Source: Spirochaetia bacterium
GTDB taxonomy: Bacteria > Spirochaetota > Spirochaetia > SZUA-6 > Bin103
DNA: 64,000 bases
Assembly: GCA_965198005.1 (NCBI GenBank)
Contig: CBDAOI010000004.1
Location: forward strand, 128,001-192,000
Direction of reading: 5' to 3'
The position numbers were made by a program, and so were the translations under genes. Under the pieces are notes generated by a model. That model was not told the origin of the DNA. It worked only from the letters and a program-made list of their open reading frames with translations, and made no database searches. The number at the start of each line of letters is the position of its first letter. Within the stretch, counting starts at the first letter, position 1. Shown here piece by piece: positions 35,167 through 63,283 of this stretch.

Positions 35167-35174
35167 GCCGCAGG

Positions 35175-35635
35175 ATGCCACGCATGCCACGCACCGCAGC
35201 ATTGTCCCCACCCCGGCAGCCGCGCGCCGCACCGCGGCCGCCGAACATCCTGTTCATCATGGCCGACCAGCTCGCGGCCTGCCGCCTCGGCTGCTACGGC
35301 AGCGGCGTGCCGTCCACCCCGGTGCTGGACGGGCTGGCGCGGGCCGGCGTGCGCTTCGACCGCTGTTACGCCACCCACCCGGTGTGCGCCCCCTTCATCC
35401 GCCGGCAGGTGGCGGCGCGACCCGACCAGCCGTTCCTGTGCCACGTCTCCTACGTGGATCCGCACGACCCCTACGACCCGCCGCAGCCCTACGCCGCCCG
35501 GTTCGCGGCCGACGACATGCCGCCGGTGCTGCCGGCGGAGTGGCTGGGGCAGGGCTACCGCCTGCTGGAGGAGGCCCAGAGGATCGGTGGATCCCACCGC
35601 GTGTGCGACCGGCCGCAGGTGCTGCGGGCGCTGCA
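35175..35635 (+). pseudogene. Second sulfatase remnant
   Basis: PNILFIMADQL...TPVLDGLA...PVCAP, then jumps to PFLCHVSYVDPHDPYDPP. Confidence 0.78.
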
Positions 35636-36695
35636 GCTCCAGCCGCACCCCGGTGCCCGCCGGTTGGAGGCTGCAGCGCGCCGTCGCCGGCAGGGTGAGC
35701 ACCAGTTCCAGGCCGGCCGCGCCGTACGCCTCCAGCCCCACCGTCACCGCCCACCCGTTGAAGTTGTGCAGCACCAGGTAGCGGTCGCCGAACGGGTGCG
35801 CGCTCACCCGCGTGGGAGCGCGCAACCCGAAGCCGAACGGCGCCAGCAGCGCCGCGCGCAGGTCGGCCAGAGGCAGCAACCCGGGCGGTGGAGCGGGGCC
35901 GCCGCCGGCGAACGCGGGGTCCAGGTCGGTGCGGCTCAACTGGATGCCCAGCACGCGGGCGGCCATGCGCACGTCGCCCAGGTACTTCATCGAGAGGTCC
36001 CAGCCGGCGTCGTCCGCCAGCGCCTCCCACGCCGCGCGCGCGCCGCGGACCGGGCGCAGCCGATCGTGCGCGTCGTAGGGGTCGCGCACGCCGCCGAAGT
36101 CGACCACCGCGGGATAGTCGACGCTGGCTTCGATCACGTACACGTTGGGTCGCTCCAGGAACGCCGGATCCAGCGTGGCGGCGAGCCCGTCGGTCACCAG
36201 CACGGGCAGACTCGAGCCCCGCAGGAAGGCGATCTTGGCCGCGAAGTCGGGGAAGGATCGGGTGTGCAGGGAGAGGAAGAACCCCTCGGCGTCGTCCGGG
36301 AAGTCGCGCGCGGGCCGCAAGGGGATGCCCAGTTGACCGACGTAGTCGAACACGTTGGCGTCGCCGGCGCGCCCGAAGTCCCACGGCTCCGCTCGATTCG
36401 GCCGGGCCGCCACCAGACCGCGCACCGGGTTGGCGCGCACGATGCGGGTGAGCTCCCGGATCGGGCCGGCGTCTCTGAGGATGGCCGGAAACTGGCGGGC
36501 GCCGCCGGGGAACGCCCAGTGGTAGTCCGGACCCAGGCCGCCGTAGGGATGCAGCACCAGCTCGCGCGGCCCGCCGAGCAGGGTCTGGTACGCGGTATCC
36601 AGGGTGTGGGGCGTGTCCTGCAGCGGCATGATCCACGCTCCGCCGAGCCTGCTCCCCGCCAGCTCGTTGATCCAGCCCATCAGGAAGCAGGCGCG
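35630..36695 (-). pseudogene. Fragment of a hypothetical protein, both ends apparently lost
   Basis: Protein-like composition in the middle of ORF 35085..36806; flanked by junctions to unrelated genes. Confidence 0.45.
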
Positions 36696-36696
36696 G

Positions 36697-37074
36697 TAAC
36701 GTGAGCGAAGTCGTACGTGCGGGTCTGCGCCTGCTGGAGGACGAAGAGACGAAACGGCGTGCGTTGCGGGCGGCATTGCTGGCAGGCGAGGCCAGCGGAC
36801 CAGCAATTCCGTTCGACTGGGATGAGTTCATCGCACGCAAGCGGGCTGAGCAACACACCAGTTGAGAGTCCTCTACCGACCGGCCGCGCTCGACGACTTG
36901 GAACAGATCTACGATTTCACGTTCGAAATGTGGGGGCCGGCACAGGCGGAGAACTACCTGGCGCAGCTGCGGTCGGCTGCGGAACGATTGCTGGTGCATC
37001 CGCGCAGTTCGATCGCATGGACATCCGCTCGCGGCTCACCGGCAACGATTGACCGAAGCGACGAGTATCGCTAA
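36697..37074 (+). pseudogene. Second parDE copy: 5'-truncated parD and 3'-disrupted parE
   Basis: Near-identical to 18370-18581; ParE continues IYDFTFEMWGPAQAENYL. Confidence 0.85.
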
Positions 37075-37559: not shown

Positions 37560-37869
37560 CACGGCCCCTGTAGGCCCCCACAACAAGTTAGCGCTTATGC
37601 CCCCTGTACCCTTTATAGAGATTAGATAGTTCGCCAGGGACTGCTAGAATCCCAGGCGGGCAAGGCAGCCTACCGGGAGCAACCTTGAGCCCCCCGCGCC
37701 GTAGAGCGCCCGGGGGGGACATGTGCCCCGGTAGGAGTGCCGCGATGGATACCCAGTGAGGAGTAGTGCCAGGTGGGAAGGTGCCAGGAGCACCGGAGCA
37801 CCGGAGCACCAGTACAGGGGTGGAACGACATCGTGGCAGCCGAGCTCCACAATCTCGGGAGGTGACAGG

Positions 37870-39123
37870 ATGTCAACCGAACAGACCGAACAGTGGTTCG
37901 TGGGTATCGATTGGGCGACCAGGCAACATCAGATCTGTGTGCTTGAGGGTGACGGGGAGGTGGTCGCGGAACGGCAGGTGGACCATAGCGGCGCCGGCAT
38001 CGCCGACTTGTGCGCGTGGTTGCACGAGCTATCGGGCGGGCACCCGGAGCGCGTGCACGCGGCGATCGAGATGCCGCATGGCGCGGTGGTCGAGATGCTG
38101 CTGGAGCGGGAGGTGCAGGTGTACGCGATCAATCCCAAGCAGCTGGATCGATTTCGTGACCGGTTTACGGTGGCCGGCGCCAAGGATGACCGGCGCGACG
38201 CGCGGGTGTTGGCAGACTCGCTGCGCACCGACCGCCGCAGCTTTCGTCAGTTGCAGGTGCAGGCACCGCCGGTGATCGAGTTGCGGGAATGGTCGCGCCT
38301 GACTGCCGAGTTGCAGGAGGAACGCAACGGGCTGATCAATCGCATGCGCGAGCAACTGCGCCGCTACTACCCGCAGCTGATCGAGCTGGGCGGTGACCTC
38401 GGCGCGGGCTGGGTTCTGGAGTTGTGGGAGAAGGCGCCGACGCCGGCGGAGGCAGCGCGGGTCCGGAAGGCGTCGGTCGCGGCCATCCTGAAGCGCAACC
38501 GCATCCGGCGCCACGCTGCTGCCGGTGTGCTGGGCATCCTGCGGCAGCAGCCGCTTGAGGTGGGCCGCGGGACGATAGCGGCGGCTACGGCGCACATCGC
38601 GAGCGTGATCGCCCGGCTGAAGCTGGTCGACCAGCAACTCAAACAGGCGCACAGCCGGCTCGACGAACTGCTGGCCGAGATTGTGGCCGACGACGACTCG
38701 GGTGAACCAGAAGAGCGGCGTGACGCCGTCATCCTGCGTTCGATGCCCGGTGTCGGTCGGATCGTGCTCGCCACGCTGCTGGCCGAAGCCTCACAGCCTC
38801 TGGCTGAGCGAGACTACCACAGGTTGCGGATTCTGACCGGGGTGGCGCCGGTGACCAAGCGGTCGGGGAAGAGTTGCCAGGTGAGCATGCGCCGGGCCTG
38901 CAACCAGCGGCTGAGCAACGCGATGTATCACTGGGCGCGGGTGGCGATCCAGCACGATCCGGTGAGTCGGGAGCGGTATGCGGCGCTGCGCGCGCGCGGG
39001 CAGCGCCATGGCCGGGCGCTGCGTACGGTCGCGGACCGGTTGCTCGCGGTGGCGTGCGCGATGCTGCGTGACCGCACGCAGTTTGATCCACAGCACCGGG
39101 CTCCGCGACCGCTGACCGCCTGA
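37870..39123 (+). mobile_element. IS110-family transposase/recombinase, intact ORF
   Basis: N-terminal DEDD RuvC-like motifs (GIDWA, AIE, KDDRRDA); C-terminal SMPGVG, GVAPVTKRSGK. Confidence 0.93.
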
Positions 39124-40021: not shown

Positions 40022-41937
40022 GAGCGCCAGGCTAACTGGCATATGACAGAGGGTGAAAGTCCCTCGGAACGAAGGAGCAGCCAATCCACGTTTCTCCGCG
40101 AGCCGTGCGTTGGCACCTGCGAGGGTGCAGGCGAAGCGTCGGCAGCGGTGCGTGCGGGCAGAGTTATGGAGCGCCGCAAAATACGACATCTGGAGTGCCG
40201 AGACTCTGTACTCGGTCGAAGGCAACACCGGTCGAGCCAGTATGGTGAGGATCGACCGGGCTCCACGGCGTCGAAGAACTCAGGCACGTACGTACGTCAT
40301 ATACCGGGACCTGGGAGGTCTTCGGGTCGTCCCGGCGAGTCGTCGCCGGGACCGCGGAGGGAAGGCGTGAGGCTGGACCAAAGATGAACGACCCGAAGGA
40401 GTCGGACATGGGCATAGTAGCGGCGAAGCCGGCGAACAAGGGAGCGCAAGCGACTGCGGAGACGGTGGAGCGAAGGCCCATGACCAACGGGAATTCGCAA
40501 GGTCAAAGCACGGGCCGGACGCAGAGTCGGGCAACCGTGACACAGGCGGCCGAGCGGATACGGCAATTCGTAAAGAGAGAACCGCAGGAGAAACTCACTG
40601 CGCTGCTGCACCACGTGACGCCGGAAGCGCTGCGGGTGGCCTATTACGCGCTGAAGCGTGAAGCGGCCCCGGGGGTGGACGGGATGACGTGGCGGGAGTA
40701 CGAGACGGGGTTGGAAGTGCGCTTGCACGACCTGCACCGGCGAGTACACACAGGAGCGTACCGAGCGACCCCGGTACGGCGGGTCAACATCGACAAGCCG
40801 GACGGAGGCACACGACCGCTGGGGGTGGCCGCGCTGGAGGACAAGATCGTCCAGAAGGCCGTGGTGGATGTGATCCTGACACCGATCTATGAGGAGGAAT
40901 TTCTCGGGATCAGCTATGGGTTTCGACCGGGGCGCGGGGCACACGATGCGTTGGACGCACTGGCCTACGCCATCGAACGGCGCAAAGTGAACTGGATATT
41001 GGACGCGGACATTCGCGGCTACTTCGATTCGATCTCGCGGGACTGGTTGATCAGATTCCTGGAGCATCGGATTGGAGATCGGCGGGTGCTGCGGCTGATA
41101 AAGAAGTGGCTGCGCGCTGGGGTACTGGAAGAAGGCCGACAGATCGACGCGGGGCGGGGTACAGCGCAAGGGTCGGTGATTTCACCGATGCTCGCGAATA
41201 TATACTTGCACTACGTGTTGGACCTGTGGGTCACCAAGAAGTGGCGGCCGCAGGAGGCGCGCGGAGACATGATCATAGTGCGCTACGCAGATGACTATGT
41301 CGCCGGGTTCGAGCATCGTGACGATGCGGAACGCTTCCTGCGGGAACTGAAGGAGCGATTCAGAGGCTTCGAGCTGGAACTGAACGCCGACAAGACCCGA
41401 CTCCTCGAGTTTGGACGGTATGCCGAAAGGAACCGCCGAGCACGTGGGGAAGGGCGACCGGAGACGTTCGACTTTCTGGGTTTCACGCATTATTGCAGGA
41501 AGGACAGGAAAGGACGCTTCGGGCTGGGGCGGAAGCCAATTCGGAAGCGGATGAATCGTACGCTGAAGAGGATCAAGATCGAGCTCCGCAGACGAATGCA
41601 TGATGACGTGATGGAAACCGGGCGCTGGCTGGGACGGGTACTGCGCGGATGGCTCAACTACTACGCGGTACCCACCAGCTACCGCTATCTGCACCGATTC
41701 GTGTGGCGTCTGCGAGGAATCTGGGTAAAGATTCTACGCCGGAGGTCCCAGAAGGACCGATTCTCCTGGGCTTGGATGCTGGCGATCAGCATCAAGCTGT
41801 GGCCCCAACCCCGAATCGTACACTCATGGCCGGACCGGCGATTTGCCGTCAACCACCGAAGGTAGGAGCCGGATGGTTTAACGACCACGTCCGGATCTGT
41901 GCGGGGGGCGCCGGGTAACCGGCGTTCCTACCGCGCC
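40022..41937 (+). mobile_element. Group II intron, copy 1 (1,916 nt; resembles bacterial class E)
   Basis: RT ORF followed by domain V (gagccggatg...cacgtccggatc) and domain VI; ends defined by the empty site at 44541/44542. Confidence 0.92.
40384..41865 (+). CDS. ltrA: Group II intron reverse transcriptase/maturase, no endonuclease domain
   Basis: APGVDG, KPDGGTRPLG, SYGFRPGR, LDADI, QGSVISPMLANIYLH, RYADD, FDFLGFT, LRGWLNYY. Confidence 0.95.
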   Translation: MNDPKESDMGIVAAKPANKGAQATAETVERRPMTNGNSQGQSTGRTQSRATVTQAAERIRQFVKREPQEKLTALLHHVTPEALRVAYYALKREAAPGVDGMTWREYETGLEVRLHDLHRRVHTGAYRATPVRRVNIDKPDGGTRPLGVAALEDKIVQKAVVDVILTPIYEEEFLGISYGFRPGRGAHDALDALAYAIERRKVNWILDADIRGYFDSISRDWLIRFLEHRIGDRRVLRLIKKWLRAGVLEEGRQIDAGRGTAQGSVISPMLANIYLHYVLDLWVTKKWRPQEARGDMIIVRYADDYVAGFEHRDDAERFLRELKERFRGFELELNADKTRLLEFGRYAERNRRARGEGRPETFDFLGFTHYCRKDRKGRFGLGRKPIRKRMNRTLKRIKIELRRRMHDDVMETGRWLGRVLRGWLNYYAVPTSYRYLHRFVWRLRGIWVKILRRRSQKDRFSWAWMLAISIKLWPQPRIVHSWPDRRFAVNHRR

Positions 41938-42286
41938 CTCCCTGGGTTTGGAAGGCCGTCAGGGGGCCGCTATGAGGCCGACGCGGACGCCGAGCGGCCC
42001 GCTGCCGGCCAATCGGCGGTGAATGCCGGCCCTGAACGGGTCCGAGTGCCGGGATCGTCGGCGTAGCGGCGCGCATGCTGGCGCGCGGGCGGCGAACTCG
42101 ACCGGCAGCCGCGCGGCAGGCAGCCGGCTTGGAACAGCAACCCGACGACCGCACGCGGCGGGGCCTTCGATTGCTGGTCCAGGTGGGAGCCGGGGTGGCG
42201 GACCGCGCGGCGTCAGCGGTGTCAGCGGTGGTGGGAAACGGCTTTGACGGGCACTTTGCGGGATTCCGGGGGGTACCCTGGGGTAT

Positions 42287-44202
42287 GAGCGCCAGGCTAA
42301 CTGGCATATGACAGAGGGTGAAAGTCCCTCGGAACGAAGGAGCAGCCAATCCACGTTTCTCCGCGAGCCGTGCGTTGGCACCTGCGAGGGTGCAGGCGAA
42401 GCGTCGGCAGCGGTGCGTGCGGGCAGAGTTATGGAGCGCCGCAAAATACGACATCTGGAGTGCCGAGACTCTGTACTCGGTCGAAGGCAACACCGGTCGA
42501 GCCAGTATGGTGAGGATCGACCGGGCTCCACGGCGTCGAAGAACTCAGGCACGTACGTACGTCATATACCGGGACCTGGGAGGTCTTCGGGTCGTCCCGG
42601 CGAGTCGTCGCCGGGACCGCGGAGGGAAGGCGTGAGGCTGGACCAAAGATGAACGACCCGAAGGAGTCGGACATGGGCATAGTAGCGGCGAAGCCGGCGA
42701 ACAAGGGAGCGCAAGCGACTGCGGAGACGGTGGAGCGAAGGCCCATGACCAACGGGAATTCGCAAGGTCAAAGCACGGGCCGGACGCAGAGTCGGGCAAC
42801 CGTGACACAGGCGGCCGAGCGGATACGGCAATTCGTAAAGAGAGAACCGCAGGAGAAACTCACTGCGCTGCTGCACCACGTGACGCCGGAAGCGCTGCGG
42901 GTGGCCTATTACGCGCTGAAGCGTGAAGCGGCCCCGGGGGTGGACGGGATGACGTGGCGGGAGTACGAGACGGGGTTGGAAGTGCGCTTGCACGACCTGC
43001 ACCGGCGAGTACACACAGGAGCGTACCGAGCGACCCCGGTACGGCGGGTCAACATCGACAAGCCGGACGGAGGCACACGACCGCTGGGGGTGGCCGCGCT
43101 GGAGGACAAGATCGTCCAGAAGGCCGTGGTGGATGTGATCCTGACACCGATCTATGAGGAGGAATTTCTCGGGATCAGCTATGGGTTTCGACCGGGGCGC
43201 GGGGCACACGATGCGTTGGACGCACTGGCCTACGCCATCGAACGGCGCAAAGTGAACTGGATATTGGACGCGGACATTCGCGCCTACTTCGATTCGATCT
43301 CGCGGGACTGGTTGATCAGATTCCTGGAGCATCGGATTGGAGATCGGCGGGTGCTGCGGCTGATAAAGAAGTGGCTGCGCGCTGGGGTACTGGAAGAAGG
43401 CCGACAGATCGACGCGGGGCGGGGTACAGCGCAAGGGTCGGTGATTTCACCGATGCTCGCGAATATATACTTGCACTACGTGTTGGACCTGTGGGTCACC
43501 AAGAAGTGGCGGCCGCAGGAGGCGCGCGGAGACATGATCATAGTGCGCTACGCAGATGACTATGTCGCCGGGTTTGAATACCGGGACGATGCGGAACGCT
43601 TCCTGCGGGAACTGAAGGAGCGATTCAGAGGCTTCGAGCTGGAACTGAACGCCGACAAGACCCGACTCCTCGAGTTTGGACGGTATGCCGAAAGGAACCG
43701 CCGAGCACGTGGGGAAGGGCGACCGGAGACGTTCGACTTTCTGGGTTTCACGCATTATTGCAGGAAGGACAGGAAAGGACGCTTCGGGCTGGGGCGGAAG
43801 CCAATTCGGAAGCGGATGAATCGTACGCTGAAGAGGATCAAGATCGAGCTCCGCAGACGCATGCATGATGACGTGATGGAAACCGGGCGCTGGCTGGGAC
43901 GGGTACTGCGCGGATGGCTCAACTACTACGCGGTACCCACCAGCTACCGCTACCTGCACCGATTCGTGTGGCGTCTGCGAGGAATCTGGGTAAAGATTCT
44001 ACGCCGGAGGTCCCAGAAGGACCGATTCTCCTGGGCTTGGATGCTGGCGATCAGCATCAAGCTGTGGCCCCAACCCCGAATCGTACACTCATGGCCGGAC
44101 CGGCGATTTGCCGTCAACCACCGAAGGTAGGAGCCGGATGGTTTAACGACCACGTCCGGATCTGTGCGGGGGGCGCCGGGTAACCGGCGTTCCTACCGCG
44201 CC
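42287..44202 (+). mobile_element. Group II intron, copy 2
   Basis: Near-identical to copy 1, offset 2,265 bp. Confidence 0.92.
42649..44130 (+). CDS. ltrA: Group II intron reverse transcriptase/maturase
   Basis: 493 aa; two visible substitutions versus copy 1. Confidence 0.95.
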   Translation: MNDPKESDMGIVAAKPANKGAQATAETVERRPMTNGNSQGQSTGRTQSRATVTQAAERIRQFVKREPQEKLTALLHHVTPEALRVAYYALKREAAPGVDGMTWREYETGLEVRLHDLHRRVHTGAYRATPVRRVNIDKPDGGTRPLGVAALEDKIVQKAVVDVILTPIYEEEFLGISYGFRPGRGAHDALDALAYAIERRKVNWILDADIRAYFDSISRDWLIRFLEHRIGDRRVLRLIKKWLRAGVLEEGRQIDAGRGTAQGSVISPMLANIYLHYVLDLWVTKKWRPQEARGDMIIVRYADDYVAGFEYRDDAERFLRELKERFRGFELELNADKTRLLEFGRYAERNRRARGEGRPETFDFLGFTHYCRKDRKGRFGLGRKPIRKRMNRTLKRIKIELRRRMHDDVMETGRWLGRVLRGWLNYYAVPTSYRYLHRFVWRLRGIWVKILRRRSQKDRFSWAWMLAISIKLWPQPRIVHSWPDRRFAVNHRR

Positions 44203-45269
44203 CTCCCTGGGTTTGGAAGGCCGTCAGGGGGCCGCTATGAGGCCGCGAGCGGCCCGCTGCCGGCCAATCGGCCGTGAATGCCGGCCCTGAACGGGTCCGA
44301 GTGCCGGGATCGTCGGCGTAGCGGCGCGCATGCTGGCGCGCGGGCGGCGAACTCGACCGGCAGCCGCGCGGCAGGCAGCCGGCTTGGAACAGCAACCCGA
44401 CGACCGCACGCGGCGGGGCCTTCGATTGCTGGTCCAGGTGGGAGCCGGGGTGGCGGACCGGGCGGCGTCAGCGGTGTCAGCGGTGGTGGGAAACGGCTTT
44501 GACGGGCATTTTGCGGGATTCCGGGGGGTGCCCTGGGGTATCTCCCTGGGTTTGGAAGGCCGTCAGGGGGCCGCCATGAGGCCGACTCGGACGCCGAGCG
44601 GCCCGCTGCCGGCCAATCGGCCGTGAATGCCGGCCCTGGAGGGGTCCGAGTGCCGAGATCGTCGCCGCGGCGGCGCTCGTGCTGCCGCTCCTGTCCGAGC
44701 AGCCTCGAGCGCCGCGATGGCCGCAGCAACGGCCCATTCCCCCCGCGTGCGGCGACTGACGGAGCAGCGGCTCGACGTTCAAGGAGGTCTGCCGTCGTTA
44801 GCTGTCCTGGAGGTGGCTGCGACCCGACCAGGCTGGGCTGCGGGCGGTGGCGGCGCGGTCAATACGGAGCCAGCGGTGCCGGGAATCGGCGTTGACGGGT
44901 GTTGCCGGGGGTGCCCCAGGCTACCCCCGAGGGGCTGGAAGGCCCTCAGGGGGCCGCTATGAGGCCGCGAGCGGTCCGTTGCCGGCCAATCGGCGGTGAA
45001 TGCCGGCCCTGAACGGGTCCGAGTGCCGGGATCGTCGGCGTAGCGGCGCGCATGCTGCCGCGCGGTCGGCGAACTCGACCGGCAGCGGTGCGGCAGGCAG
45101 AGGCAGCCGGCTTGGAACAGCAACCCGACGACCGCACGCGGCGGGGCCTTCGATTGCTGGTCCAGGTGGGAGTCGGGGTGGCGGACCGCGCGGCGTCAGC
45201 GGTGTCAGCGGTGGTGGGAAACGGCTTTGACGGGCACTTTGCGGGATTCCGGGGGGTACCCTGGGGTAT

Positions 45270-47185
45270 GAGCGCCAGGCTAACTGGCATATGACAGAGG
45301 GTGAAAGTCCCTCGGAACGAAGGAGCAGCCAATCCACGTTTCTCCGCGAGCCGTGCGTTGGCACCTGCGAGGGTGCAGGCGAAGCGTCGGCAGCGGTGCG
45401 TGCGGGCAGAGTTATGGAGCGCCGCAAAATACGACATCTGGAGTGCCGAGATTCTGTACTCGGTCGAAGGCAACACCGGTCGAGCCAGTATGGTGAGGAC
45501 CGACCGGGCTCCACGGCGTCGAAGAACTCAGGCACGTACGTACGTCATATACCGGGACCTGGGAGGTCTTCGGGTCGTCCCGGCGGGTCGTCGCCGGGAC
45601 CGCGGAGGGAAGGCGTGAGGCTGGACCGAAGATGAACGACCCGAAGAAGTCGGACATGGGCATAGTAGCGGCGAAGCCGGCGAACAAGGGAGCGCAAGCG
45701 ACTGCGGAGACGGTGGAGCGAAGGCCCATGACCAACGGGAATTCGCAAGGTCAAAGCACGGGCCGGACGCAGAGTCGGGCAACCGTGACACAGGCGGCCG
45801 AGCGGATACGGCAATTCGTAAAGAGAGAACCGCAGGAGAAACTCACTGCGCTGCTGCACCACGTGACGCCGGAAGCGCTGCAGGTGGCCTATTACGCGCT
45901 GAAGCGCGAAGCGGCCCCGGGGGTGGACGGGATGACGTGGCGGGAGTACGAGACGGGGTTGGAAGTGCGCTTGCACGACCTGCACCGGCGAGTACACACA
46001 GGAGCGTACCGAGCGACCCCGGTACGGCGGGTCAACATCGACAAGCCGGACGGAGGCACACGACCGCTGGGGGTGGCCGCGCTGGAGGACAAGATCGTCC
46101 AGAAGGCCGTGGTGGATGTGATCCTGACACCGATCTATGAGGAGGAATTTCTCGGGATCAGCTATGGGTTTCGACCGGGGCGAGGGGCACACGATGCGTT
46201 GGACGCACTGGCCTACGCCATCGAACGGCGCAAAGTGAACTGGATATTGGACGCGGACATCCGGGCCTACTTCGATTCGATCTCGCGGGACTGGTTGATC
46301 AGATTCCTGGAGCATCGGATTGGAGATCGGCGGGTACTGCGGCTGATAAAGAAGTGGCTGCGCGCTGGGGTACTGGAAGAAGGCCGACAGATCGACGCGG
46401 GGCGGGGTACAGCGCAAGGGTCGGTGATTTCACCGATGCTCGCGAATATCTATCTGCACTACGTGTTGGACCTGTGGGTCACCAAGAAGTGGCGGCCGCA
46501 GGAGGCGCGCGGAGACATGATCATAGTGCGCTACGCAGATGACTACGTTGCCGGGTTTGAATACCGGGACGATGCGGAACGCTTCCTGCGGGAACTGAAG
46601 GAGCGATTCAGAGACTTCGAGCTGGAACTGAACGCCGACAAGACCCGACTCCTCGAGTTTGGACGGTATGCCGAAAGGAACCGCCGAGCACGTGGGGAAG
46701 GGCGACCGGAGACGTTCGACTTTCTGGGCTTCACGCATTATTGCAGGAAGGACAGGAAAGGACGCTTCGGGCTGGGGCGGAAGCCAATTCGGAAGCGGAT
46801 GAATCGTACCCTGAAGAGGATCAAGATCGAGCTCCGCAGACGCATGCATGATGACGTGATGGAAACCGGGCGCTGGCTGGGACGGGTACTGCGCGGATGG
46901 CTCAACTACTACGCGGTACCCACCAGCTACCGCTACCTGCACCGATTCGTGTGGCGTCTGCGAGGAATCTGGGTAAAGATTCTACGCCGGAGGTCCCAGA
47001 AGGACCGATTCTCCTGGGCTTGGATGCTGGCGATCAGCATCAAGCTGTGGCCCCAACCCCGAATCGTACACTCATGGCCGGACCGGCGATTTGCCGTCAA
47101 CCACCGAAGGTAGGAGCCGGATGGTTTAACGACCACGTCCGGATCTGTGCGGGGGGCGCCGGGTAACCGGCGTTCCTACCGCGCC
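45270..47185 (+). mobile_element. Group II intron, copy 3
   Basis: Near-identical to copy 1, offset 5,248 bp. Confidence 0.92.
45632..47113 (+). CDS. ltrA: Group II intron reverse transcriptase/maturase
   Basis: 493 aa, YADD intact. Confidence 0.95.
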   Translation: MNDPKKSDMGIVAAKPANKGAQATAETVERRPMTNGNSQGQSTGRTQSRATVTQAAERIRQFVKREPQEKLTALLHHVTPEALQVAYYALKREAAPGVDGMTWREYETGLEVRLHDLHRRVHTGAYRATPVRRVNIDKPDGGTRPLGVAALEDKIVQKAVVDVILTPIYEEEFLGISYGFRPGRGAHDALDALAYAIERRKVNWILDADIRAYFDSISRDWLIRFLEHRIGDRRVLRLIKKWLRAGVLEEGRQIDAGRGTAQGSVISPMLANIYLHYVLDLWVTKKWRPQEARGDMIIVRYADDYVAGFEYRDDAERFLRELKERFRDFELELNADKTRLLEFGRYAERNRRARGEGRPETFDFLGFTHYCRKDRKGRFGLGRKPIRKRMNRTLKRIKIELRRRMHDDVMETGRWLGRVLRGWLNYYAVPTSYRYLHRFVWRLRGIWVKILRRRSQKDRFSWAWMLAISIKLWPQPRIVHSWPDRRFAVNHRR

Positions 47186-48241: not shown

Positions 48242-48535
48242 ATTCACTCGGTGGGCCAACAGGTGGGCATGGTCGCGTTTCACACTCGGAGGGCTTGAGC
48301 TTATGACAGGGCTTGCGATCTCGCCCTCGAAACTTTTCTGTAACCTTTCGGCGCCCAATGTTGCCATATCTGTTTACGATGCACCTCTGCCCCCCGTTCT
48401 CCGAGAATCGCTGTCGCGCCGTGCGGGTGCTTGCCTCCCACGGGAAGAATGGGTATATTGAAGTCGTGTATTCACTTGGTGGGCCAACAGGTGGGCATGG
48501 TCGCGTTTCACACTCGGAGGGCTTGAGCTTATGAC
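48242..48535. repeat. 66-bp direct repeat pair (48242-48307, 48470-48535), also at 62212-62277 and 62440-62505
   Basis: attcact(c/t)ggtgggccaacaggtgggcatggtcgcgtttcacactcggagggcttgagcttatgac. Confidence 0.9.
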
Positions 48536-48917
48536 CCTCTGCCCCTCTACCAGCGGTTCCCCGAGAATCGCTGCTGTTTGCCTGTTGACTTGTTTGCCGC
48601 AGGCGTGCCATACTAAAAGCCTCGGGTTTGAACGGATGCAAAAGATGGGTGATAACACTACTCAGCACTGCCACCGGTTAGCGGCAACGCAGCCGGCGCG
48701 TCCTATCCTCGCCTACCCCCCCCCCCCCCCCCCCCCCCCCCCCGGCGGGAGCTCCAAGAATTCGTTTCGCGGGGGTTGAAAAATGGTGAGGAGTCCCCCG
48801 CGTGGCGTTGTGACGCAGGTCCCGACGTCCGCCGAGCGGTGGGCGTTTGCATGATGGGGCGCGCACGCGGGTCCCATCTTACGTCAGCCATCCGGCAGGG
48901 CACCCTGTGCCCCAAGA

Positions 48918-49082
48918 AGGAGGTGAAGATGATACTGAAAGAACCGCACGCGCGCGCGGCGTGAGCCCGGGTGAACCCGGTGAGTCACACGCCGCGCGCT
49001 TGAGGAATCTGACTCAGACTGGCCGTCCGCGTTGCGGGCGCGAGAGTAGCCAGGGAGCGGCAGGCCGCTACGCAATACTCTC
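48918..49082 (+). promoter_or_regulatory. Leader class I, copy B: RBS, MILKEPHARAA short ORF (48929..48964) and structured RNA
   Basis: Three homologous copies, each directly 5' of a binding-protein gene or its remnant. Confidence 0.72.
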
Positions 49083-49091
49083 AAGATCAAA

Positions 49092-50906
49092 ATGATGGAC
49101 AAAACAATGAAAATCTTATTTAGAATGACCTTCGCGGTCGCGTTGGTCATGGTGCTGACCGCAACCGGCCTCTGGGCCGGCGCTGCCAGCGAAGAGGAGC
49201 CGGCGGCCGCCGCCGACAAGAAGTATGTAACCGACCCCACTACCGGCAAGGTGGTGAGCGCGCCAGAGTATGGCGGGACACTCACCTATGCCAAGATCGG
49301 CATGCCAACTTCGAGTACTGACGCTTGGACCGATGGTGGCGTTGTGGGATATCTCTTCCTCAGTCACACTCTAGAGAAGCTAGCCATCGGGAACTGGGCG
49401 ATAGATCGAGAAGAACATGGCTGGAATACAACGGCCGTACCTCTATGGAGCTTAAATGGGGCGCTGGCGGAAAGTTGGGAGATTTCCCCAGATGGACTCA
49501 CCTATACCTTCAAAATCCGACAGGGCGTCTACTGGCATGATAAGGCACCGATGAACGGTCGGGAGCTAACTGCCGATGATATCGTATATAACTATCACCG
49601 TTATTTGGGTCTGGGCAGTGGCTTCACCGAACCTAGCCCCCATTTTGGGGGTCTCGTCGTTCTGCCATTCGAATCGATAACGGCCACCGACAAATATACG
49701 GTTGTCATGAAGCTGGAGGAGCCACGCCTCTTTGCGATGGGTGATATCGTCGACTACTATATGGGTTATATGTATCCCCCGGAGGTAATCAAGGAACACG
49801 GAGACGCTAAGGACTGGAGGAACTTGGTCGGCACCGGGCCCTATATGATAACTGACTTGGTCAAGGGCAGCTCGGTGACCTATACCAAGAATCCTGACTA
49901 CTGGGGCTACGACGAAAAATACCCGGAGAACCGCCTGCCCTATATTGACCAGTTAGAGTTCCTGGTTATGCCAGAGGAGGCGACACGCCTGGCGGCACTG
50001 CGCGCGGGTACGCTTGATGTCATGGGTCGCAACGGCAACGCTTCAATACAGTCTATCGACGTACTAGAGAGTCTCCAGCGGACCAACCCCGAAATCGTGT
50101 TGTGGAAGTTTCCTTGGCGGTCGGATACTTCTTTTCATCTTAACGTGAGTAAGCCGCCCTTTGACGACATCAATGTGCGCAGGGCAATGCAGATGGCACT
50201 AGACCTTGGGACAATTAACGCTACCTACTGGAAGGGTTATGGATCTACCAGACCTCAGGGGACAGTTGCCGATGATGCGAAAGGGTGGGTCCTCCCATTT
50301 GAAGAGTGGCCGGAAGCGGTCAAGAAAGTCCATACCTATGACCCGACAGGTGCAGAAGCGTTGCTTGATGCGGCTGGATATAGACGTGGCGCCGACGGCA
50401 CTAGATTCAAGACCCTGGTCAACGTCTATGAGGCGCACGATGCGACCTTTGCAGAACTAGCCGCTGCATACTGGGGTGACATTGGCGTTGATGTCGAGAT
50501 TCAGATAACTCCAGGAGCTGAGTTTGTCGCCGCGAAAAAGGGCGGACTTTATGAAATGCTCTCTGGGACAACAGCCATCAGGGTGAGTGCTCCGTCACCA
50601 AACCAATATTGGTCGGGCAATCCACATAACCCTTCCTATGTCAAGGATCCGAATTATGACGCCATGTACGACGCCTGGCAGGAAGCTGACACTATTGAGG
50701 AGGCGCAGAGGTGGATGAAAGAGGCAAATATGTACGTGGAAGAAAGGCACTGGAGCCTATGGGGTGGCGAACTCCCACAGTGGAACGTGAGCCAGCCGTG
50801 GGTCATGGGTTATAACGGTGAAGTCTGGTTGGGAATGGGTCAACAAGATAACTTCTTCGCCCGCCTCTGGATTGATAGTGAGCTGAAGGAAGCAATGGGT
50901 CATTAG
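49092..50906 (+). CDS. ABC transporter family-5 solute-binding protein, intact
   Basis: Family motifs as above; exact start among nearby ATGs uncertain. Confidence 0.93.
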   Translation: MMDKTMKILFRMTFAVALVMVLTATGLWAGAASEEEPAAAADKKYVTDPTTGKVVSAPEYGGTLTYAKIGMPTSSTDAWTDGGVVGYLFLSHTLEKLAIGNWAIDREEHGWNTTAVPLWSLNGALAESWEISPDGLTYTFKIRQGVYWHDKAPMNGRELTADDIVYNYHRYLGLGSGFTEPSPHFGGLVVLPFESITATDKYTVVMKLEEPRLFAMGDIVDYYMGYMYPPEVIKEHGDAKDWRNLVGTGPYMITDLVKGSSVTYTKNPDYWGYDEKYPENRLPYIDQLEFLVMPEEATRLAALRAGTLDVMGRNGNASIQSIDVLESLQRTNPEIVLWKFPWRSDTSFHLNVSKPPFDDINVRRAMQMALDLGTINATYWKGYGSTRPQGTVADDAKGWVLPFEEWPEAVKKVHTYDPTGAEALLDAAGYRRGADGTRFKTLVNVYEAHDATFAELAAAYWGDIGVDVEIQITPGAEFVAAKKGGLYEMLSGTTAIRVSAPSPNQYWSGNPHNPSYVKDPNYDAMYDAWQEADTIEEAQRWMKEANMYVEERHWSLWGGELPQWNVSQPWVMGYNGEVWLGMGQQDNFFARLWIDSELKEAMGH

Positions 50907-51098
50907 GGGTTTGAGCCCTTGTGGCTGAGCTCAGGGGAAGAGGGAGCTGGGAGCCTGTCGCTTGCAAGCGCGCCTCCCGGCTCCCATACTCATTGGATGA
51001 TGGGAGGGCAACCAGAAGACGCAACCATTTGAAATTACTCTGGTATGGTTGGCAATGAAGAAAGAAATGACGGGCGAAATTGCAATGAGGTGTGTCAC

Positions 51099-52100
51099 AT
51101 GCGAGCCTATATCATCAGGCGTTTATTGCTGATAATCCCCACCTTGTTCATATTGACCATCCTGGTCTTTCTCGCGGTCCGCTTCATCCCCGGCGATGTC
51201 GTAGACCTAATAATTAGTTTTATGTGGTGGGATGGGCAAGCAGAAATAGACCGTGAAGCTGTTGAGCGGATGCTGGGATTAGACGTGCCTGTCTACGTGC
51301 AGTACGTACGCTGGATAGGAGTGTTGCCGACCCCTGACTGGCTTACCGGTGAGTCCCGCTACAATGGTATCCTCCAGGGCACCCTTGGCGAGTCACTGAT
51401 GGGCGCTGGGGCGGTGGGGGAGAACATATTAGATAGACTGCCGGTAACCATTGAGCTTGGTGTCATGGCAATCGTAATCGGGCTCGTGATAGCCCTGCCA
51501 GTCGGCATCTACTCGGCGATACGCCAGGATACGGCTGCCGATTACACGGGGCGCGCCGCGGCCATCATCGGCCTGGCGGCGCCCAACTTCTGGCTGGCCC
51601 TCATGGTCATGATCTATCCTTCGATCTGGTGGGGCTGGGCGCCTCCGATGAGGTGGGTTCCCTTTGCCGAAGACCCGCTCGGCAATCTCAGGTTATTCAT
51701 CATTCCAAGCCTGATTCTGGGGACGGCCGGTGCCGCCGGCACCATGCGGCTGATGCGCACCACGATGCTCGAAGTGCTCAGGCAGGACTATGTCAGAACG
51801 GCGTGGGCCAAAGGTCTCAAAGAGCGGGCAGTCATCGTGAGACACGCCCTCAAAAATGCGCTCATACCGGTAATCACCCTGATAGGCTTGCAGCTGCCAA
51901 TCTTGGTGGGTGGATCGGTCATCATAGAGAACATATTCAACCTCCCCGGGTTGGGTCGTCTCTTTCTCGATGCACTCAATGGCAGAGACTACCTGATGGT
52001 CTCAGGAGTAAACCTGGTGTTCGGCGTCGCGGTCTTGGGGAGTAATCTGATGATCGACCTGATTTATCCCTATCTGGACCCCAGAGTCCGGTATCAATAG
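51099..52100 (+). CDS. DppB/OppB-family permease
   Basis: MRAYIIRR...LDPRVRYQ; RBS gaggtg. Confidence 0.93.
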   Translation: MRAYIIRRLLLIIPTLFILTILVFLAVRFIPGDVVDLIISFMWWDGQAEIDREAVERMLGLDVPVYVQYVRWIGVLPTPDWLTGESRYNGILQGTLGESLMGAGAVGENILDRLPVTIELGVMAIVIGLVIALPVGIYSAIRQDTAADYTGRAAAIIGLAAPNFWLALMVMIYPSIWWGWAPPMRWVPFAEDPLGNLRLFIIPSLILGTAGAAGTMRLMRTTMLEVLRQDYVRTAWAKGLKERAVIVRHALKNALIPVITLIGLQLPILVGGSVIIENIFNLPGLGRLFLDALNGRDYLMVSGVNLVFGVAVLGSNLMIDLIYPYLDPRVRYQ

Positions 52101-52112
52101 AGCGAGTAGATC

Positions 52113-53021
52113 GTGGAAATGAGTAAGGATCGAGGGCCTATTCGGCGGGCTGATTCCTTCGTAAGGCTGGTCAAGGGGAAACCGTTAGGCACCATCAGCG
52201 CGTTGATCATATTGATATTGATTCTCGTGGCCATTCTTGCCGATGTCTTGGCACCCTATCCATATGACGAAATACACCTGATCGACAGGCTTCAGGGCCC
52301 ATCGGCGCAGTATCTCCTGGGCACCGATCAGGCGGGGCGAGACCTCTTGAGCCGCCTCATCTTCGGGGCGCGCGTTTCGCTGCTCGTCGGTTTGGCAGTG
52401 ACCACTCTCAGCGTTGTCATCAGCACCGTGATAGGCGGCACGGCCGGTTTCCTGGGTGGCAGATTTGATATTGTACTGCAGAGATTTGTCGATGCGTGGA
52501 TGGCGTTCCCGGGACTGCTCCTGTTGTTGACGATGATGTCCATCGTGGGGCGGGGTGTGCCGCAGATAATAGTGGTCCTGGGGATAGCCGGAGGCATCGG
52601 CGGCAGTCGAGTGATCAGAGGCGCCGTAATCGGCATCAAAGAGAATGTGTATTTTCAGGCGGCCGACGCCGTTGGCTCCTCGAGATTGCGCACATTCATG
52701 CGACATGTGGTGCCGAATGTCCTGCCTATCGTGATCATAACGTTCAGCGTGAGCATAGGCGGCGTAATCCTGGCTTTGGCTTCTCTGGGCTTCCTCGGAT
52801 TTGGTCTGCCTCCTGGGATTCCTGATTGGGGAGGTCAGCTCAGCCGGGACGGACGCCAGTATATGGAGATAGCGCCGCGGCTGGCGTTCTGGCCCGGTCT
52901 GTGCCTGACTATCACCGTTTTCAGTCTCAACATGTTCGGCGACGCCGTGCGGGACCTGCTCGACCCGCGGCTGAGGGGCGGTGGGGGTCGTCTCGCTGGC
53001 AGCGGCGCCACGTCGGTTTGA
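52113..53021 (+). CDS. DppC/OppC-family permease
   Basis: GTDQAGRD, RHVVPN, GDAVRDLLDPR. Confidence 0.92.
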   Translation: MEMSKDRGPIRRADSFVRLVKGKPLGTISALIILILILVAILADVLAPYPYDEIHLIDRLQGPSAQYLLGTDQAGRDLLSRLIFGARVSLLVGLAVTTLSVVISTVIGGTAGFLGGRFDIVLQRFVDAWMAFPGLLLLLTMMSIVGRGVPQIIVVLGIAGGIGGSRVIRGAVIGIKENVYFQAADAVGSSRLRTFMRHVVPNVLPIVIITFSVSIGGVILALASLGFLGFGLPPGIPDWGGQLSRDGRQYMEIAPRLAFWPGLCLTITVFSLNMFGDAVRDLLDPRLRGGGGRLAGSGATSV

Positions 53022-55282: not shown

Positions 55283-56815
55283 ATGACTCCACGACTCATG
55301 TTGCTGCCGCTGGCGCTCGCGCTGGTGGCTACCGTTACGTTCGCCAGCGGCGAGAGCGACCAGCCGGCTGCCGCGGCCGAGAAGGAAATGGTGCGCGACC
55401 CGAGCACCGGCGAGATGGTCACCGTGCCCGAGTATGGCGGCACGATCAGAGCGATCGTGAACTTGAAGCTCGAGGGTCTCGACCCCTACTGGGCATTTAA
55501 TACGGGATACTTTATCGGGCTGGTCAACGAGAAGCTGGGCATCCCGGACTGGGCGATCGACCGGAGCAAGGTGGGCTATTCCACGATGTACATGCCCGGC
55601 GAGGCCCTCACCGGACAACTGGCCGAGAGCTGGGAGAACCCGGATCCGCTCACCTACGTGTTCAAGATCCGCGACGGCGTGGTTTGGCACGACAAGGCGC
55701 CGGTGAACGGCCGGCAGCTGACCGCGCACGATGTCGCCTACAGCTTCGACCGGCTCCTTGGTTTGAGCGGCGGCGAGAGGCGCCCCCACGTCAATACCAC
55801 TGCTATTGGCAGGCTCTCGTGGGAGTCGATTACCGCAACCGACGAATTCACCGTGGAATTCAAGTTGCAGGAGCCCAGTCTCGACGCCCTGGACGCCATC
55901 CTCAAGGGACCACACATGATGGTGATCGCCCGCGAGGTGGTCGAGCAATTTGGAGACATTCAAGACTGGCGCAACGTGACCGGAACGGGGCCCTATCAGC
56001 TGACCGATGTGGTTCAGGGCAGCTCCTGGACCTACACCAAGAATGGGGATTACTGGGGCACCGACCCGAAATTTCCCGAATACCGCTTGCCTTATGCGGA
56101 CACGGTGGAGTACGTGATGGTCAACGACCCCGCGGCCACACTGTCCTTGATGCGCTCGGGGCAGGCGGATTTTATGGGCGTCGCTTTGTTTTCACATCTC
56201 ACCAGTGTCGACCAGGCGGTCAATCTGCAGAAGACCAACCCCGACCTGGAGCTACACCCGTGGTCCTTTCGCGCGGAAACGGCGATCGGTTTCATCCCCA
56301 AGGGGCCCTTCAGCGATATCCGCGTGCGCCAGGCCCTGAGCTTGGCCATCGACCAGGAGGCCATCGCGGAGAACTACATGCAGGGTTGGGGCGATGCGAG
56401 CCCTTCCGGGCCGATCGGCCCAGCGGTGCTGGGGTACTTCATGCCGTACGAGGAGTGGCCCGATGGGGTCAAGCAGTACTATCGGTATGATCCCGAGGCG
56501 GCCGAAAAGCTGCTGGATGAGGCCGGCTACCCGCGGGGCGCGGACGGCGTTCGCTTTAAGACCATCTATGAGCACTACGAGTTCTTCGACCTCGGCTACT
56601 ACCAGATCGCCATGGATTACCTCAGGCAGATCGGCATCGACGTCGAGACCCAAATCGTTACTCGCGCGGAATATATCGACAAGGCCGTGAATCATACCTC
56701 CCTTGGCCTGCGCTCGGATGTATGGGCCATGGAGAACGGTGCCGTGGCGCCGCTTGACACATATTCTTTCAGTATCTCTGGATCGACCAGGATCTGAAGC
56801 GGGAGCTTGGCGGCT
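55283..56815 (+). pseudogene. Solute-binding protein with a deletion/frameshift near the C-terminus
   Basis: Normal up to ~56770, then jumps to the terminal LWIDQDLK motif out of frame. Confidence 0.85.
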
Positions 56816-60386: not shown

Positions 60387-61166
60387 CCGGCTTGTCGATG
60401 TTGACCCGCCGTACCGGGGTCGCTCGGTACGCTCCTGTGTGTACTCGCCGGTGCAGGTCGTGCAAACGCACTTCCAACCCCGTCTCGTACTCCCGCCACG
60501 TCATCCCGTCCACCCCCGGGGCCGCTTCACGCTTCAGCGCGTAATAGGCCACCCGCAGCGCTTCCGGCGTCACGTGGTGCAGCAGCGCAGTGAGTTTCTC
60601 CTGCGGTTCTCTCTTTACGAATTGCCGTGTCCGCTCGGCCGCCTGTGTCACGGTTGCCCGACTCTGCGTCCGGCCCGTGCTTTGGCCTTGCGAATTCCCG
60701 TTGGTCATGGGCCTTCGCTCCACCGTCTCCGCAGTCGCTTGCGCTCCCTTGTTCGCCGGCTTCGCCGCTACTATGCCCATGTCCGACTCCTTCGGGTCGT
60801 TCATCTTCGGTCCAGCCTCACGCCTTCCCTCCGCGGTCCCGGCGACGACTCGCCGGGACGACCCGAAGACCTCCCAGGTCCCGGTATATGACGTACGTAC
60901 GTGCCTGAGTTCTTCGACGCCGTGGAGCCCGGTCGATCCTCACCATACTGGCTCGACCGGTGTTGCCTTCGACCGAGTACAGAATCTCGGCACTCCAGAT
61001 GTCGTATTTTGCGGCGCTCCATAACTCTGCCCGCACGCACCGCTGCCGACGCTTCGCCTGCACCCTCGCAGGTGCCAACGCACGGCTCGCGGAGAAACGT
61101 GGATTGGCTGCTCCTTCGTTCCAAGGGACTTTCACCCTCTGTCATATGCCAGTTAGCCTGGCGCTC
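60387..61166 (-). mobile_element. Group II intron copy 4, inverted and 3'-truncated (5' 780 nt)
   Basis: Reverse complement of 40022-~40801; RT ends after NIDKP. Confidence 0.92.
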
Positions 61167-61967: not shown

Positions 61968-63116
61968 CCGCTCCCTGGGGAACTGAACCTGCTCCCTGAA
62001 CGATCCCTGACTGGGGCTGCGGCGCAGGTGTGCCGGCCGCGCGCGGGCAACCGGCCCCGAAGGGCCGATCGCCGCACCGCGCCAGCCCGCGGCATCGGCC
62101 GAGCGGCGGTGGCTGACGGTGGTCAGGTCATCGCACGGGGCTGCATGACGGTGGCTAAATACGTCACCTGCAATCAGTTACAGAATTTCTCCCGGGTCGG
62201 GCCGTGGGTGCATTCACTCGGTGGGCCAACAGGTGGGCATGGTCGCGTTTCACACTCGGAGGGCTTGAGCTTATGACAGGGCTTGCGATCTCGCCCTCGA
62301 AACTTTTCTGTAACCTTTCGGCGCCCAATGTTGCCATATCTGTTTACGATGCACCTCTGCCCCCCGTTCTCCGAGAATCGCTGTCGCGCCGTGCGGGTGC
62401 TTGCCTCCCACGGGAAGAATGGGTATATTGAAGTCGTGTATTCACTCGGTGGGCCAACAGGTGGGCATGGTCGCGTTTCACACTCGGAGGGCTTGAGCTT
62501 ATGACCCTCTGCCCCTCTACCAGCGGTTCCCCGAGAATCGCTGCTGTTTGCCTGTTGACTTGTTTGCCGCAGGGGTGCCATACTAAAAGCCTCGGGTTTG
62601 AACGGATGCAGAAGATGGGTGATAACACTACTCAGCACTGCCACCGGTTAGCGGCAACGCAGCCGGCGCGTCCTATCCTCGCCTACCCCCCCCGACGGGA
62701 GCTCCAAGAATTCGTTTCGCGGGGGTTGAAAAATGGTGAGGAGTCCCCCCCCCCCCCCCCCCCCGCAGCTTTTTCGGACCGATAAGCAACTAACCGCTCC
62801 GGCTGCTCGCCCTTTACGCGACCCCGCGCGCGCCGTCGCCTTCACCACCGCAGTAGCTCGCACTGTCGGTCGCGCCGGCTCGGTCCCGCGCCGAACCGAC
62901 CTGCGGGCCGCCCGCGCCCTTCCCGGCGACCGCAACCGTCCCGGCTTCCCGCCCGCGACTCCCCCGGTCGGCGTCTGCATGATCGGGCGCCCACGCGCTG
63001 CACGCGCTGTGCGCTGCGCACCCCAGCTTACGACTATTTCCGGCCCGAGACAGGCGGCCTGCATCAGGCATCTGACAGGGCCGCCTGTGGCCCAAGATCG
63101 CAAGATCAAGCTAACC

Positions 63117-63283
63117 AGGAGGTGCACATGATACTCAAGGAACCTTAGGCGCGCGCGGCGTGAGCCGGGGCGAACCCGCTGAGTCACACGCCGCGCGCTT
63201 TTGGTGAATCCGACTCGAACTGGCAGCCTGTGTTGCGGGCCCGAGAGTAGCCAGGGAGCGGCAATCCGCTGCGCAATACTCTC
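63117..63283 (+). promoter_or_regulatory. Leader class I, copy C: RBS, MILKEP short ORF (63128..63148) and structured RNA
   Basis: Homologous to copies A and B. Confidence 0.72.

Follow-up and report, generated by a model that had tools for sequence, protein, structure and literature searches.

A 64,000-nt stretch of a Spirochaetia bacterium genome (GCA_965198005.1, contig CBDAOI010000004.1, positions 128,001–192,000, forward strand; hereafter the window) carries, immediately before a gene for a solute-binding protein (SBP), an element at 48918–49082. We consider it fairly likely to be a genuine, transcribed, lineage-specific and modular post-transcriptional 5′ leader of ATP-binding cassette (ABC) importer operons that open with an SBP gene. 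This type-I leader, 175 nt long, consists of a strong Shine–Dalgarno (SD) sequence, a short upstream open reading frame (uORF) encoding M-I-L-K-E-P, a 12-bp GC stem and two more domains. Judged by its sequence features, it probably sets how strongly the importers are made; that it regulates at all, in which direction and on what trigger, we infer.

A preliminary description had proposed the element from three copies in the window (A, B and C, Table 1), and the parts it listed were recovered at the positions it gave (10115–10262, 48918–49082 and 63117–63283). In each copy, AGGAGGTG is followed by a start codon (TTG in A, ATG in the other two) and ILKEP, and then by HARAA* in B, HARAV* in A or a direct stop in C (asterisk, stop codon). 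All three contain the 12-bp stem GCGCGCGG(C/T)GTG / CACGCCGCGCGC with its small hairpin cap, as well as GAGTC...GACTC and CTGGC...GCCAG around an inner hairpin, and GAGAGTA...TACTCTC was found in copies B and C. The three-copy alignment is nearly invariant from the SD through the end of the second domain; copy A is followed by an SBP fragment lacking its N-terminus. A covariance model, R1, was built from 70 of 76 genome copies, leaving out six truncated or rearranged ones (L049, L052, L058, L063, L072 and L084). Run over the whole window with filters off, it returned as full matches exactly the three copies (48914–49088, 205 bits, E 5.6e-52; 63113–63289, 188 bits; 10112–10321, 141 bits), the remainder being partial reverse-strand hits on the palindromic stem and one weak match at E 0.32. 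The three copies are therefore real, but they are a sample of about 85 type-I copies per genome and of a wider leader family.

Table 1. Leader copies, their parts and the adjoining genes in the window (positions counted from its first letter).
Feature	Position	Strand	Remark
uORF SD AGGAGGTG, copy B	48918–48925	+	start of conserved block
uORF, copy B	48929–48964	+	ATG ATA CTG AAA GAA CCG CAC GCG CGC GCG GCG TGA = MILKEPHARAA*
P1, 12-bp stem	48952–48999	+	48952–48963 with 48988–48999; 5′ strand within uORF
P1a, apical hairpin	48967–48980	+	caps P1
PK1, candidate pairing	48982–49015	+	GAGTC 48982–48986 with GACTC 49011–49015
P2	49019–49053	+	CTGGC 49019–49023 with GCCAG 49049–49053
P2a, hairpin	49024–49040	+	enclosed by P2
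PK2	49041–49082	+	CGAGAGTA 49041–49048 with TACTCTC 49076–49082; spans P2 3′ strand and P3
P3, hairpin	49054–49071	+	between PK2 strands
SBP_bac_5 gene	49092–50906	+	first ATG 49092; paralog-aligned start 49107; PF00496, E 4e-74
Two ABC permease genes	51045–53021	+	same operon as copy-B SBP; BPD_transp_1, OppC_N
Copy A, type-I leader	10115–10262	+	TTG start; broken after P2
Copy C, type-I leader	63113–63289	+	uORF MILKEP*; SBP start 63310
Type-II leader (L268)	14770–14915	+	start codon ATA; shared 3′ pseudoknot domain; SBP start near 14908
Related leader (L269)	26060–26178	+	3′ domain GAGAGTGC...GCGCTCTC; SBP at 26181

The genome that holds the window (4.89 Mb in four contigs, 66% G+C, 90% complete) gave 88 blastn high-scoring segment pairs (HSPs) with copy B as the query, 76 of them spanning at least 100 nt of it, so the element occurs far beyond chance; R1 matched 85 sites. 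Among these genome copies, alignment columns are about 90% conserved from the copy-B SD onward, and 5′ of it the sequences fall into four or five unrelated classes, conservation thus setting in exactly at the uORF SD. All 76 BLAST copies lie directly upstream of an ORF for an SBP homolog and on its strand, several of these ORFs being truncated. The association with SBP genes claimed in the preliminary description thus held, with no sign of the random placement it had named as the alternative outcome. A mobile repeat, such as a miniature inverted-repeat transposable element or a repetitive extragenic palindrome, that landed near SBP genes by chance would account for the high copy number and the internal 12-bp inverted repeat. 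It is nevertheless extremely improbable, given that all 76 copies share orientation and position relative to the SBP gene, that the inverted repeat is internal and not terminal, and that the reverse strand yields partial palindrome hits only.

The SBP genes that open these importer operons form a paralogous SBP_bac_5 set with the leader in front, and a permease homolog follows each of the 62 full-length type-I SBP genes. Across the whole genome, tblastn with the two permeases returned 160 and 146 HSPs, and blastp gave 168 hits to the SBP subfamily, 77 with a type-I leader. These numbers indicate that an operon of the Opp/Dpp type has been amplified about 150-fold, its paralogs making up more than a tenth of the 4.9-Mb genome. 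In related genomes, an SBP signal peptide lies 3′ of 61 of 65 distinct leader copies (51 recognized by regular expression and 10 by eye); three of the other four are truncated and one is a spurious reverse match.

The uORF behaves as a coding sequence, as had been proposed. This genome and related ones supplied 129 distinct copies, for which the counts refer to cells and not to independent events. The start codon is ATG in 114, GTG in 9, TTG in 3, CTG in 2 and AGG in 1, which makes 126 of 129 canonical. Variation in codons 2–6 (I L K E P) is distributed 16/17/93 over the first, second and third codon positions, with 87 synonymous compared with 35 non-synonymous cells and third-position polymorphism at three different codons (Leu, Glu and Pro). 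From this periodicity, the MILKEP peptide is under purifying selection as far as codon variation can tell. Codon 7 varies (CAC 87, TAG 20 and TAC 9), so MILKEP can be regarded as the constant core.

Another 50 or so SBP paralogs have related leaders that share the 3′ domain and contain different mini-ORFs. In these, AAGGAGG precedes a different mini-ORF, usually followed by a hairpin and then by the common domain, GYCGCCCUCGC ... hairpin ... CGAGAGUAG-GCGAGGGGC-CGGCAGUG ... UACUCUCG. The mini-ORFs read M[QATP]P[KR]TGYD*, MKSPYD*, MKHPTGYD*, M*, MEN*/MQN*/MRN*, VKL*/VKP* or MQILTVYG*. In nine distinct type-IIa uORFs the T-G-Y-D codons change at third positions only, and in type-III leaders ATG-TAG stands immediately 3′ of a strong SD. 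A profile built from 30 of these leaders (28 non-type-I and 2 type-I-like fragments) found 86 sites, 77 of which adjoin an SBP start. Since 35 of the 86 overlap type-I copies, the type-I and non-type-I 3′ domains are homologous. The joining nucleotides CGAGAGUAG and CGGCA(G/A)U are common to all leader types and to the sister genus.

RNAalifold gave a poor consensus on the 70-copy alignment because of insert columns; helices were drawn by hand and pairs counted instead. In the resulting nine-helix drawing, 94% of cells are paired in this genome, and nine pairs show changes on both sides compared with 4.5 in shuffled alignments (reached by 1 of 500). Among relatives the corresponding figures are 15 and 4.1 (0 of 500), with both-side changes at 4/5 pairs of P2, 3/6 of P2a, 5/7 of P3, 3/7 of PK2, 0/12 of P1 and 0/5 of PK1; this alignment was fitted to the model and, since most of its rows were recruited through exact identity with the P1 3′ strand, the figure for P1 is biased. 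P1 is paired in 98% of cells with G–U variants only, and the missing both-side changes and biased row recruitment leave thermodynamics and these G–U variants as its backing. The proposed GAGTC:GACTC pairing, PK1, is present in all three window copies and 98.5–100% paired in this genome, where one pair changes on both sides (2 cells); among relatives it shows a few uncompensated changes, and PK1 is kept here as a candidate pairing. Within this genome, indels occur at hairpin tips only: about 10 copies lack P1a, in 4 it has gained 22 nt, and about 20 contain P2a twice. The G–U pairs are consistent with the sense strand only (one P3 pair, for instance, is G–U in 22 of 66), and together with the indel pattern they mark the stems as features of the RNA.

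The 3′ helix PK2 forms in the minimum free energy fold of copy B. In 41 non-type-I domains the equivalent helix, CGAGAGUA:UACUCUCG, is paired in 95.6% of cells, with both-side changes at 6 of 8 pairs (pair counts UA 24/CG 14/UG 3; AU 21/GC 10/GU 5/other 5; AU 33/GC 4/GU 3). Its covariation score is 0.172; shuffles give 0.124, none of 500 reaching the observed value, and controls with a slid partner stay at or below 0.076. With these six of eight pairs and the 15 compared with 4.1 among relatives, the leader has conserved structure with covariation. P2 is swapped as a whole between types, CUGGC:GCCAG in type I and GCCCUCGC:GCGAGGGC or CCUUCGC:GCGAAGG in the others. The strands of the domain run P2-5′, loop, PK2-5′, 1 nt, P2-3′, a 15-nt loop or P3, and PK2-3′. 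The preliminary description had taken GAGAGUA:UACUCUC for a switchable alternative fold. Because both helices are conserved or covarying and their strand order is that of a legal H-type pseudoknot, we read P2 and PK2 as a putative pseudoknot in which the two would coexist. At one locus elsewhere in the genome (G000:C4:381092–381496; L070, L272), the pseudoknot domain is tandemly duplicated, a second, hybrid 3′ domain standing between a type-I leader and the SBP start.

Against Rfam 15 the leader stays below the gathering threshold of every family, in agreement with the earlier failure to recognize it. At these thresholds the whole window contains only four group II intron domains. A permissive scan of 48700–49200 gave three chance-level hits, the best at no more than 17 bits compared with thresholds of 55–84, and seven leaders of five types had no Rfam hit at E ≤ 1. 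In the papers searched, ‘MILKEP’ did not occur; a combined search for such a motif in spirochaetes gave no matching publication, and one on sponges, spirochaetes and SBPs showed no such leader among the titles listed. Each kind of part is already known; the combination of parts, the copy number and the cassette exchange described below are new.

The leader has a narrow range. In other genomes of the same genus, with at most 114 candidates scored per genome, R1 matched 43, 62, 35, 33, 5, 1 and 1 sites, and it had no match in three further same-genus genomes or in 13 sister-genus genomes; one further hit lies in a sponge-derived bin. A second covariance model, R2, covering the 3′ domain, was run on 92 genomes of the order. 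It matched this genus (6 of 10 other genomes), gave one marginal sister-genus hit and was without a match in the 68 genomes from seven other families. With the threshold relaxed, single weak copies (21–31 bits) appeared in 4 of 13 sister-genus genomes, each before an SBP_bac_5 gene and without a uORF. As far as these genome sequences reach, the leader is thus restricted to one genus of sponge-associated Spirochaetia metagenome-assembled genomes, plus single weak sister-genus copies. Two complete leaderless genomes of the genus (G009 and G010) have no SBP expansion (eight matches each, one only at 45% identity), and the SBP homolog of G010 has an ordinary TTGACA...TACAGT region and a short 5′ untranslated region (UTR). 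Given the single sister-genus copies and these leaderless members without the expansion, the pseudoknot domain seems to predate the amplification, the uORF modules and the high copy number being recent. Among metagenome loci found by pattern, 80 of 119 were scored with R2; the best reached 26 bits compared with 50–119 for true copies and none was convincing, and the matches follow from an exact 18-mer. Non-spirochaete contigs matching the 18-mer (Solirubrobacterales, Myxococcota and others) had no R1 match.

These observations bear on whether the 3′ pseudoknot domain is a riboswitch, that is, an aptamer for a global metabolite or ion that switches translation of all importer operons. The domain is a compact pseudoknot with a covarying helix, adjoins the ribosome site, has joining nucleotides common to all leader types and the sister genus, and matches nothing in Rfam. 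However, the context suggests no ligand, the SBP SD is not in the knot, no expression platform (terminator or SD sequestration) was found, and the range of one genus plus weak sister-genus copies, with 0 of 68 genomes in the other seven families, also counts against it. We regard a riboswitch as unlikely.

Transcription of the leader is indicated by public sequencing data. Twenty runs hold the stretch, eight of them RNA libraries and several labelled as sponge metagenome. Four RNA runs, belonging to three studies, have contigs over the leader (span 48836–49036), and two contigs bridge its 3′ end into the coding sequence (X1, 49042–49184, no differences; X2, 49033–49186, one difference). The depth of these contigs sums many paralogs and was used neither for level nor for attenuation; the gap at 48367–48634 is uninformative, and 48702–48768 was skipped as a poly-C repeat. 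The preliminary description had named a transcription start downstream of the motif as an outcome that would speak against it. Cover of the motif and the bridges into the coding sequence point the other way, although contigs cannot map a start.

Some RNA-library contigs cover the region from 48635 onward. A candidate sigma-70-like site, TTGACT-18-CATACT with TG, lies at 48585–48614 and is the sole promoter-like match in 48500–49200; if it marks the start, the 5′ UTR would be about 470 nt long and the uORF far from the 5′ end. A moderately conserved element, CCCCGCGTGGCGTTGTGACGCAGGTCCCGACG, is located at 48796–48835, about 90–130 nt 5′ of the uORF, in type-I and type-II leaders alike. It seems to be transcribed, since RNA contigs of paralogs join exactly there (loose ends at 48796 in three runs). 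Poly-C tracts of about 10–30 C adjoin a repeat, ...AATGGTGAGGAGTCCCCC..., at 48712–48745 and recur upstream of SBP leaders; they also precede a different subfamily of SBP genes. A repeat element, phase variation of the tract or an artefact of long-read assembly could explain them.

We further compared the leaders with the genes behind them on a tree of 118 full-length SBP bodies from which the first 60 residues had been removed; leader types were labelled by regular expressions, and some ‘none’ labels are degraded leaders. The types are scattered over the tree, with 41 parsimony changes (1000 label shuffles: mean 51.4, minimum 45) and the same type in only 22 of 37 cherries. Three sister pairs were aligned at the DNA level. 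In the clearest, the identity of a type-II gene and a type-I gene is about 90% between about +50 and +1830, and their upstream parts are unrelated (about 40%); the junction near +50 falls inside a signal-peptide coding stretch common to all types. Near-identical SBP bodies with different leader types show that the leader and signal peptide are exchanged as one module by recombination. The lack of linkage between leader type and SBP body also argues against sensing of the transported substrate, 26 type changes beyond the 15 required by six labels being spread over the tree; this speaks against a substrate-sensing riboswitch but not against one for a global signal.

Among 58 intact type-I genes, the median pairwise identity is 0.82 in the leader, 0.81 in the N-terminal 52 codons (amino acids 0.75, four-fold sites 0.75) and 0.60 in the SBP body (amino acids 0.47, four-fold sites 0.64), and leader and body identities are almost uncorrelated (rho 0.13). 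Homogenization of the N-terminal block at the nucleotide level was considered and rejected: at four-fold sites its identity is only modestly higher than that of the body, so its conservation is mostly at the protein level. Part of the leader uniformity may nevertheless come from recombination. In the strongest form of this argument, the leader has no regulatory role and is the shared 5′ end of a recently amplified operon, maintained by gene conversion as a homology anchor for recombination. Bodies about 90% identical behind unrelated leaders, the junction near +50, the scatter of leader types on the body tree and the low rho all fit such an origin. The variation inside the block, however, looks functional, with codon periodicity, compensatory pairs and indels at hairpin tips alone, and the 3′ domain is retained as a single copy in the sister genus. 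We therefore hold this explanation to be quite unlikely.

The leader reading that we prefer, a post-transcriptional one, would work through two modules. Module 1, a very strong SD and a mini-ORF (M-I-L-K-E-P in type I), would load or park a ribosome, and translation of the type-I mini-ORF must melt the 12-bp P1. Module 2, the candidate H-type pseudoknot in which P2 is crossed by GAGAGUA:UACUCUC, would shape the zone in which ribosomes land or affect how stable the SBP mRNA is; its end lies 8–25 nt upstream of the SBP SD. Together, the modules could impose a common expression programme on more than 130 importer operons.

Several observations weigh against this reading. The SBP SD lies outside the pseudoknot. 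A scan at the locus found no terminator-like site on the sense strand, the sole such site being on the minus strand; P1 is followed by TT and variable sequence, unlike the GC-rich hairpin and U-run of an intrinsic-terminator attenuator. Holding a ribosome footprint open at the uORF stop left the predicted unpaired probability of the SBP ribosome site at 0.468 compared with 0.474 (per copy, 3 of 58 up and 2 of 58 down) in a nested fold model that is blind to pseudoknots. Searches of the 90%-complete genome found neither RNase J nor RNase E/G, which weakens an exonuclease block of the STAB-SD type discussed below; RNase Y is present. In seven type-II copies the ATG has become ATA, CTA or GTA, with frame and stop retained. 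P1 and PK1 are without both-side changes among relatives, and because all copies come from the paralogs of one genome or from near relatives, covariation cells are not independent events. The RNA evidence consists of contigs, from which neither start nor strand nor level can be read and to which DNA carry-over may contribute. Frequent recombination could also keep the leaders alike without strong function. With no terminator and no predicted effect on the ribosome site, the ribosome-coupled attenuator and the riboswitch of the preliminary description are kept here as hypotheses. Because of the missing terminator, the unchanged ribosome-site accessibility and the SD outside the knot, we commit ourselves to a post-transcriptional leader and to nothing more specific.

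One more specific version would be an arrest peptide or attenuator, in which nascent MILKEP stalls the ribosome at the Pro codon or the stop before P1 and so remodels the leader. The peptide appears to be under purifying selection, the 5′ strand of P1 lies inside the uORF, and positions along the sequence place the ribosome at P1 as it decodes K-E-P; the stop codon comes right after Pro in 20 of 129 copies, and other types keep their own peptides, the T-G-Y-D codons of nine type-IIa uORFs varying at third positions only. Against this, no alternative partner was found for a freed P1 3′ strand, no change at the SBP ribosome site is predicted, there is no terminator, and sister types make do with M* and MEN*. 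Mini-ORFs this short indicate that a specific arrest peptide is not generally required, and we think such a mechanism improbable for the type-I leader.

SBP mRNAs are classic targets of global post-transcriptional regulators, for example GcvB and CsrA, and the leaders might be the site through which an RNA-binding protein or a small RNA jointly represses or activates the entire SBP repertoire. Such regulation in trans would fit the conserved unpaired stretches and the presence of more than 130 near-identical targets. However, no candidate regulator was identified, and the strands of PK2 covary, so the PK2 sequence as such is not what is read; on balance, a trans-acting regulator is rather unlikely. 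A bolder proposal is that the family represents a new class of sensor for a global metabolite, which would either be bound by the pseudoknot or cause ribosome arrest through the conserved nascent peptides (MILKEP, xPKTGYD). This is doubtful. If true, one signal would gate more than 130 ABC-importer operons, and importers would be rewired between programmes by homologous recombination that swaps leader and signal-peptide cassettes at a common coding stretch, ‘LTATGLWA’.

The post-transcriptional leader that we favour can be set beside several known systems. Leader peptides act as cis-regulators in the ermC/ermB leaders, tnaC and pyrBI, and the type-I leader resembles them in its strong upstream ribosome site and in a conserved short ORF that overlaps an RNA helix. 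It differs in that no terminator or SD-sequestering alternative fold was found, that the peptide differs between sister types and that there are more than 130 copies per genome. SAM-II and preQ1-II are H-type pseudoknot riboswitches next to ribosome sites; here, too, two crossing helices lie directly upstream of a start site, but there is no Rfam match and the SD is outside the knot. Paralogous surface-protein families of Borrelia have conserved upstream-homology and leader-peptide modules. Like them, the present family combines a shared 5′ UTR and signal-peptide block with a large spirochaete paralog set and a recombination junction, but the proteins are importer components and each copy is a complete operon, in contrast to an expression site with silent cassettes.

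Upstream ribosome sites (uRBS/uORF) are known regulators in Sinorhizobium (PMC13285730); with about 125 nt between uORF and main start, coupling and direct occlusion do not apply here. Start-stop mini-ORFs in E. coli are described as binding ribosomes and modestly lowering expression of the host gene (bioRxiv 10.1101/520783). The type-III ATG-TAG right after a strong SD is similar, whereas the E. coli examples lie inside the gene and those described here lie in a 5′ leader, where they are interchangeable with ORFs of 3 to 11 codons. The STAB-SD of cry3A, an SD about 129 nt upstream of the start codon, has been proposed to hold a 30S subunit on the mRNA (PMC4113751). The SD here is similarly remote, at about 165 nt. 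Unlike STAB-SD, an untranslated SD that blocks the 5′–3′ exonuclease RNase J, it precedes an ORF that looks translated, and, as mentioned above, the RNase J search of the 90%-complete genome was negative.

If functional, the elements would constitute a new family of structured leaders and an unusually clean natural mutagenesis set, with well over 100 paralogous copies per genome in several sub-types that reveal the pairs and codons free to change, and would show how a symbiont coordinates about 150 copies of one importer operon. Exchange of regulatory 5′ cassettes between paralogs is a rarely visible route to regulatory diversification. Although the organism is uncultured, the small parts (120–175 nt) can be tested in vitro.

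A second SBP_bac_5 subfamily is represented in the window at 55283–56797 and by about 10 paralogs elsewhere, with the signal peptide MTPRLMLLPLALA.... Upstream of it are two small hairpins (GCCGGAGTATCCGGC and CGGGTACCGGGAC...) and GAGGAGG, with neither a uORF nor the pseudoknot domain. The four group II intron domains (RF02005, 164–170 bits) lie at 40056–47113 on the plus strand and at 60908–61132 on the minus strand. Three of them are arranged in tandem, each followed by an ORF for a 493-aa reverse transcriptase (40384–41865, 42649–44130 and 45632–47113). Two minus-strand ORFs of equal length (541 aa), at 12285–13910 and 30127–31752, look like copies of one repeat, the former containing an AAA_22 domain. 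The window also encodes an IS110-family transposase (37756–39123) and a sulfatase-domain protein (34539–36704).

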